Below are positions 26,131 to 26,844 of a stretch of DNA of 42,235 nucleotides, piece after piece; the first letter of the stretch is position 1, and each line of letters starts with the position of its first letter. Source of the DNA: a virus. The notes under the pieces were generated by a model. It was given only the letters and a program-made list of their open reading frames with translations. It did no database searches and was not told where the DNA came from. The stretch lies in the UHGV virus genome UHGV-1993760. One strand, given 5' to 3'. The translations under genes were made by a program, and so were the position numbers.

Positions 26131-26844
26131 TCAAAAATCAAGCCCTTGCATAGATACATATCTGTCTGGCGGGAAGCCATAATAGCGGTGAAATACAGAG
26201 ATAAAGTAGGACCTACTTGAATAACCGCATTTTTCTGCTACAGCCTGTCCATATCCATGTCGGGAACATAACATATTTACAGCAACCCGCATCCGTTCCT
26301 CAAGTAACAAATTACTGAACCTGAGACCTTCATCCTTGAGTTTTTTCTTTAACAAGCTCTCACTCATATGCAACTGTAGAGCAATCGCACCAAGCGTCCA
26401 GCTTGATGATATATCTGTTTGAATAATCGCTCTGACTTTGACACTTATACTGGATACACATCCACTTAAAAATAATGACATCCGTTCATCTGATTCAAAC
26501 AGCGACAGGCAGGCCATCATAAGAAACATATCCGTGGTCTCTCCGGAAAATCTCTGGCTGGTAATTAAAGCTGCAGCCAGCGCAGGATTGTTGGGGTCCA
26601 GCAACAAGTAAAGCGGAATGTCAGTCAGAGGACCGCTTGTCAGCTTATGCTGGCTTTCCAGATATTGACTTACTATAGAATGGCTTATATCGACAATTTT
26701 AACTTTGCCATAATGCATAAGGAAAAGCTCCCTGATGCATTTGGTGGCCAGAACGACTGAGCCGGGCTTAAGTGACAACGTATCCTTTTCAAGAAAAATA
26801 TTAATTGGGGAGCAAACCATGATAACTGAACAGACAACATCCAT
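26131..26844 (-). CDS. AraC-family transcriptional regulator, GadX/YdeO/AppY-like
   Basis: 237 aa; N-terminus MDVVCSVI... and C-terminal HTH ...WTLGAIALQLHMSESLLKKKLKDEG...AEKCGYSSRSYFISVFHRYYG... resemble GadX/YdeO/AppY as recalled; AT-rich flanks. Confidence 0.8.
   Translation of the reverse strand: MDVVCSVIMVCSPINIFLEKDTLSLKPGSVVLATKCIRELFLMHYGKVKIVDISHSIVSQYLESQHKLTSGPLTDIPLYLLLDPNNPALAAALITSQRFSGETTDMFLMMACLSLFESDERMSLFLSGCVSSISVKVRAIIQTDISSSWTLGAIALQLHMSESLLKKKLKDEGLRFSNLLLEERMRVAVNMLCSRHGYGQAVAEKCGYSSRSYFISVFHRYYGFPPDRYVSMQGLDF

Follow-up and report, generated by a model that had tools for sequence, protein, structure and literature searches.

What does the AraC-type regulator gene in the late region of this prophage encode, and how would it act on the host? 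The window, that is, the whole stretch of DNA that was analysed, comprises 42,235 nucleotides and is, from its sequence, a phiP27-like prophage. The gene, called psr in the following, is with high confidence best explained as an allele of the Psr-family AraC/XylS activators on a phiP27-like lambdoid prophage, with an action on acid resistance that is assigned by homology.

The open reading frame was found exactly as the first-pass annotation had placed it (Table 1). The C-terminal AraC helix-turn-helix that had been read in it is borne out: the last ~100 residues form a domain with two such motifs, as in AraC/XylS proteins, and Pfam matches to HTH_AraC (5e-13) and HTH_18 (2.2e-10) are both over their cut-offs. 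The domain matches the C-terminal domain of GadX (3mkl) at 9.9e-20 in sequence, and the modelled domain superimposes on 3mkl with TM scores of 0.88–0.90 and an rmsd of 1.3–1.5 Å. The structure prediction as a whole has a mean pLDDT of 72, with just 49–71 for residues 1–130. Matches of the full-length model to Rns, CsvR and ToxT, with rmsd values of ~16 Å, reflect the shared architecture only and were rejected. A PADLOC search gave zero defence-system matches for the protein.

In many database entries, including that of Sakai ECs_1087 (28804–29391 of the Sakai Sp4 stretch), the protein is started at an internal methionine and is 195 residues long. The 237-residue start is favoured here, because it yields an N-terminal motif, M-x-x-(V/A/T)-C-S-V-(I/V), that is common to the psr protein, YdeO, GadW, AppY and the presumed PatE (see below), GadX being the exception. 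The shorter annotation drops 42 residues that are conserved with these four proteins. No clear Shine–Dalgarno sequence was seen before psr on inspection by eye.

The N-terminal likeness to GadX, YdeO and AppY that had been proposed also holds. Residues 1–229 align with positions 1–230 of the NCBIfam YdeO model (NF007407, E 3.9e-30), and the global identities are 32% to YdeO, 36% to GadX, 34% to GadW, 30% to AppY and 36% to Sakai ECs_0287. The scores are far under the equivalog cut-offs, namely 105 versus 348 bits for the YdeO model and 91 bits versus 500 for the GadX model (NF007432), which indicates a paralogous family that is ortholog of none of these regulators. Both domains of psr are homologous to those of the chromosomal YdeO, GadX and GadW and of AppY from the DLP12 prophage, at 30–36% identity, and the regulatory routes of these four proteins meet at gadE and the AR2 system (PMC10057817). 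AraC-like genes of wild lambda-like phages (1H12, the Lambda_ev series, mEp332) belong to the same family and occupy the same Q-to-holin slot, with 36–39% identity, and are uncharacterised. ECs_0287 is presumed to be PatE (Z0321), from its position in Sp1. Like psr, PatE is an AraC-type acid-resistance regulator encoded on a prophage, and the two share their N-terminal motif and the arrangement of their domains; unlike psr, the presumed PatE gene sits in a defective prophage by tail-fibre and invertase genes.

Much closer matches are found among the Psr proteins of O157 prophages. A BLASTP-type comparison with GadX, YdeO, AppY and the PatE/Psr regulators, as proposed in the first reading, gave the expected answer, in that the closest characterised proteins are PsrA and PsrB and not the chromosomal regulators. 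The window protein is 88–89% identical to Sakai ECs_1087 of prophage Sp4 when the latter is read from the upstream ATG (237 aa), and 91% identical to EDL933_RS10010 (at 1,905,274), in both cases gap-free over 237/237 residues. ECs_1087 carries the name psrA (PMC13502914, 2026). EDL933_RS10010 is very probably PsrB, because it lies within the published OI-57 coordinates and because its identity to ECs_1087, 90%, is the published figure for PsrA versus PsrB (90%; PMC10877973). Counted as substitutions, the window protein differs at 21 positions from the probable PsrB and at 27 from PsrA. The gene of phage phiSTEC1575-Stx2k is closer still, 99% identical with two substitutions.

Psr proteins are expected to have close full-length identity to PsrA/PsrB and a place in the late region of a lambdoid prophage, and both are found here, the identities being 88% and 91% and the gene lying between Q and the endolysin. 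By sequence comparison, the window gene is a member of the known, experimentally characterised Psr family, in the usual genomic slot of the family, and the earlier suggestion of a prophage regulator of the EHEC PatE/Psr type is supported. Near-identical copies are already public, in genomes and in one published phage, under the label "helix-turn-helix domain-containing protein". Six further Psr homologs were listed by Tree et al. 2011, according to the reviews (PMC10877973, PMC8565820). In O157, Pch regulators and effector loci are reported to be associated with the psrA and psrB prophages (PMC10877973). A non-exhaustive Pfam scan of the window ORFs gave no Pch/PerC or effector genes; the association is a reported trait of the O157 loci and not a property of the protein.

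The naming of psrA deserves a comment. The assignment is based on one 2026 paper (PMC13502914) and two reviews (PMC10877973, PMC8565820), which are in conflict on the island (Sp4 versus OI-50). The reviews put psrA (z1789) on OI-50, whereas both PMC13502914 and the sequence have the psrA-type gene ECs_1087 in Sp4. A search of two Sakai prophages, Sp6 and Sp10, and of the prophage at potC (OI-50) in the re-sequenced EDL933 genome turned up no AraC gene. The potC-integrated prophage with espK, espN and nleL is without an AraC gene both in Sakai (1540000–1589999) and in re-sequenced EDL933 (1630000–1679999).

Table 1. Features of the psr region and of other parts of the window mentioned in the text (positions in the window).
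Feature	Position	Strand	Description
psr-like gene	26131..26844	minus	237-aa AraC/XylS regulator, PsrA/PsrB family; ATG start
Sigma-70 promoter-like site	26880..26907	minus	ATGAGA, 16 nt, TATAAT; 10/12 consensus; 36 nt before ATG
Terminator-like hairpin, small ORF/psr	26977..26994	minus	GCCTTC-loop-GAAGGC + TTTTT; −8.9 kcal/mol, z −1.9; weak
Small winged-helix-like ORF, 65 aa	26981..27178	minus	Homolog of phiP27 L23 and Sakai ECs_1086
Terminator-like hairpin, upstream edge of conserved module	27308..27321	minus	−11.9 kcal/mol, z −2.6
Two-gene cassette	27432..29281	plus	37% GC; between Q/methylase genes and psr module
C5-cytosine methylase	29250..30290	minus	
Q antiterminator	30354..30788	minus	Pfam Phage_antitermQ 5.8e-47; upstream of late region
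tRNA cluster	25795..26104	minus	ARAGORN: CAT-anticodon (ileZ-type), doubtful Lys(ttt), Thr(tgt), Gly(tcc)
tRNA-Lys(ttt) call	25951..26027	minus	ARAGORN; under Rfam tRNA gathering score
Two terminator-like hairpins after tRNA cluster	25470..25528	minus	−12.4 and −14.5 kcal/mol; z −4.5 and −3.2
TerB-like ORF	24902..25327	minus	Pfam TerB
Two holin-position ORFs	24271..24729, 24006..24335	minus	Named from gene order of phiP27 and related prophages only
M15 endolysin	23626..24009	minus	Pfam Peptidase_M15_4
Orphan K88/F4-type fimbrial subunit gene	21298..22122	minus	Pfam Fimbrial_K88 2.7e-58; between lysis cassette and terminase
C4 antisense RNA adjoining isrK	34886..35074	minus	Rfam, 82 bits (C4) and 62.7 bits (isrK); immunity region beside Ash/Rha-type genes

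Read along the minus strand, the order is DnaB helicase, Q, the C5-cytosine methylase, the opposite-strand cassette and a hairpin, then the 65-aa ORF, a second hairpin, psr, four tRNA calls and two further, strong terminator-like hairpins, and finally the TerB-like ORF, the two holin-position ORFs and the M15 endolysin. The corresponding order in phiP27 is Q, GIY-YIG, L23 (the small ORF), the L24 methylase, ileZ, argO, stx2e, holins and endolysin, such that psr occupies the slot of the L24 methylase. No stx gene was found in the window by tblastn, and the stx slot of the phiP27 order is empty. In every locus examined, the order is Q, small ORF, psr, ileZ tRNA, then stx, nanS-p or TerB, and the lysis genes. 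The block of small ORF, psr and ileZ stands behind four antiterminator types among Sakai Sp4, the EDL933 OI-57 prophage, O103:H2 12009, O139:H1 and the Stx2k phage.

The likeness to PsrA/PsrB comprises the length of 237 residues, the two-domain AraC plan, the lambdoid slot after Q and a small ORF and before ileZ, and a conserved upstream spacer with TATAAT. The carriers differ, as PsrA and PsrB are found on the O157 Sp4/OI-57 prophages and the window gene on a phiP27-type phage with an M15 endolysin and the P27-type gene order. Relatives of this phage type are integrated at the yecD/yecE site, unlike the O157 Sp4/OI-57 prophages. The tRNA sets are also different, with ileZ-type, Thr, Gly and one doubtful tRNA in the window and ileZ-argN-argO at the PsrA/PsrB loci.

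The 65-aa ORF has a weak Pfam match to TrmB (0.0026), under the cut-off, and its homologs precede psr in all loci. We considered it as a psr-specific partner and ruled this out, since it also occurs in phiP27, where the methylase replaces psr, and is frameshifted in some loci, such as O139:H1.

On the other side of psr, the tRNA cluster begins 26 nt past the stop codon, and Rfam confirms three of its four tRNAs. The ileZ junction is conserved in all psr loci, and the Rfam search for a regulatory RNA beside psr returned tRNAs only. The tRNA-Lys(ttt) call has no PGAP counterpart at the equivalent position of strain 52F4; it aligns with argN of Stx phages and therefore looks like a degenerate or retargeted tRNA.

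The first-pass annotation had described psr as an independently transcribed moron in AT-rich DNA, downstream of its neighbour's terminator, and this description stands in part. The DNA is indeed AT-rich, but modestly so: the GC content is 42.2% in the gene and 39% in the upstream spacer, while the structural genes reach 54% and the window as a whole has 49.9%. A terminator-like hairpin does follow the neighbouring small ORF, overlapping its stop codon, but it is a weak one (Table 1); its stem is kept in six loci and its loop varies. Homology among loci with different Q genes starts at the other upstream hairpin, where the stem sequence differs and the pairing is retained, and we infer that this hairpin may represent tR' of the late operon.

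As to transcription from within the spacer, the TATAAT of the promoter-like site and the flanking TTGATGA are identical in 6/6 aligned psr loci, with the flanks being equally conserved. Promoter-like sites in the region number 5, compared with 4.0 expected by chance from shuffled sequence, and the psr site is thus a consensus match without statistical support. That it serves as psr's own promoter is plausible, as a weak candidate. The site scan gave no terminator-like site between the psr stop and the tRNA genes, and the next ones follow the cluster; psr and the tRNAs are therefore likely to form one transcription unit. For the moron proposal this means that a conserved upstream hairpin and a conserved promoter-like site are found, in a gene with 42% GC versus 50%, but these are consensus-type signals only, the promoter count is at chance, the first terminators are those beyond the tRNAs, and the gene is embedded in the late operon. 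Since psr lies inside the Q-to-lysis operon, it is probably transcribed both ways, from its own promoter and as part of the Q-dependent late transcript.

Expression in the lysogen fits what has been published on psrA. In uninduced O157, its deletion alters type III secretion and its mRNA is detected in ordinary cultures (PMC10877973, PMC13502914), and in Sakai its expression depends on relief of Hha/H-NS silencing (PMC13502914).

We also examined the distribution of the gene and the selection acting on it. Full-length psr homologs with at least 87% nucleotide identity are present in 726 of 5426 complete E. coli genomes, and psr-positive genomes have a median of 2 copies and a maximum of 4; in 27 genomes, a copy at 99% or more was found. 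The module is thus widespread, in ~13% of complete E. coli genomes and often in 2–4 copies. It passes from one lambdoid phage type to others that have unrelated Q and lysis genes, and its carriers include Stx2k- and Stx2e-type (phiP27-like) phages. The 237 codons are retained in 7/7 psr alleles extracted, with dN/dS values of 0.2–0.4 across them. Between the window allele and PsrA/PsrB the value is 0.22–0.25, which indicates purifying selection. The alleles of the window, 52F4, the Stx2k phage and O139:H1 form a separate clade, called the P27 clade here, at a dS of ~0.22 to the O157 and O103 alleles. Family membership, position, an intact reading frame under purifying selection and a wide distribution are thereby established for psr.

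What the protein would do in the host can be proposed from its O157 relatives. PsrA and PsrB raise GadE and YhiF, by which acid resistance is increased and LEE type III secretion is indirectly lowered; PsrA, PsrB and PatE activate gadE, yhiF and hdeA, and PsrB binds the gadE and hdeA promoters directly (PMC10877973, PMC8565820). By homology, we infer the target genes, the promoter activity and the host effect of the window allele. The psr protein would use its two C-terminal helix-turn-helix motifs to bind and activate the AT-rich promoters of the acid fitness island (gadE, hdeA, yhiF), and glutamate-dependent acid resistance would go up as a result. In LEE-positive strains, GadE and YhiF would mediate an indirect lowering of type III secretion. 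The window itself contains neither the LEE nor the gad island. The gene is cargo in the late-region slot from Q to the lysis genes. In the lysogen, it would probably be transcribed at a low level from its own promoter, along with the downstream tRNA genes, and probably be subject to H-NS/Hha silencing; after induction, Q-antiterminated read-through would transcribe it strongly.

Lysogenic conversion by such a regulator, which the first reading had put forward as plausible, is not a new idea, experiments on PsrA, PsrB and PatE having already demonstrated it. The Psr regulators are a documented case of prophages wired into the acid-resistance and virulence network of the host. The window allele adds no new mechanism to this. 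The gain is in annotation, where product names are vague and many starts are placed 42 codons late.

One alternative is that psr is cargo of the late operon only, silent in the lysogen and expressed essentially after induction, with a lytic role instead of lysogenic conversion. The gene is indeed on the same strand as, and between, Q and the lysis genes, promoter-like sites such as the one before it are no more frequent than chance predicts, and H-NS typically targets AT-rich DNA. The silencing of psrA in Sakai (PMC13502914) points the same way. The two hairpins that precede psr and the perfect TATAAT, conserved in all loci, speak against this, however, and psrA has both a deletion phenotype and detectable mRNA in cultures that are uninduced or ordinary (PMC10877973, PMC13502914). 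A purely lytic role is thus considered unlikely. Even less weight, in effect almost none, is given to the view that psr has lost its function and is decaying as a passenger that leaves the host unaffected. The frameshifts of the adjoining small ORF in some loci and the many database copies annotated from the internal start would be in line with decay, but none of the seven loci has a broken frame and their dN/dS values are 0.2–0.4, the 726 complete genomes carry full-length copies, and the long start is backed by the N-terminal motif, which recurs in YdeO, GadW, AppY and the presumed PatE.

It could also be that the P27-clade allele has a diverged regulon and acts on other promoters, for example that of the orphan K88-like fimbrial gene in the window or of stx2k in phiSTEC1575. 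Rns- and CfaD-type AraC relatives regulate fimbriae, the clade is distinct (dS ~0.22 to the O157/O103 alleles), and its carriers belong to another type of phage, frequently in strains from pigs and cattle. Moreover, the helix predicted to be the first recognition helix carries two changes: where the O157 copies have T or I, the window protein has K167, and where they have N, it has D171. Its target preference could therefore differ. On the other hand, the probable PsrB shares ~90% of the residues of the DNA-binding domain and the whole of the second recognition helix, nothing ties psr to the fimbrial gene, and PsrA and PsrB also differ at the positions in question yet have targets in common (PMC10877973). 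We therefore regard a switch to other promoters as very improbable, and the Psr-family activator with the O157-type targets as the preferred reading.

A broader version of the question concerns what would be new if the window allele did depart from the O157 picture. Either the regulon of the P27 clade differs from that of PsrA/PsrB in LEE-negative porcine and bovine strains, which might be so because of the first-helix changes and the position directly upstream of stx2k in phiSTEC1575, or psr, being in the Q-dependent late transcript, might couple induction and toxin release to acid resistance of the whole population. The chance that one or the other applies is judged to be small.

Finally, a number of observations were made beside the main line. 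In phage phiSTEC1575-Stx2k (4579–6902), the 99% identical psr is located directly 5' of three tRNAs and stx2k A/B on the same strand, and the psr-type regulator and the toxin share the late transcript. In the window, the first gene of the plus-strand cassette encodes a GmrSD_N/DUF262 protein with PADLOC matches to NsnA (1.7e-45) and PD-T4-2_A (1.3e-26), and the second a HEPN protein of the MAE_28990 type (Pfam, 3.8e-16). Together, they probably form a system for defence against phages. In 52F4, the closest relative, this place is taken by a DUF4236 gene. The fimbrial subunit gene has no usher or chaperone nearby and is annotated in strain 52F4 as well. In the immunity region, the adjacent C4 and isrK RNAs suggest an antirepressor circuit under antisense control in the style of P1/P7.
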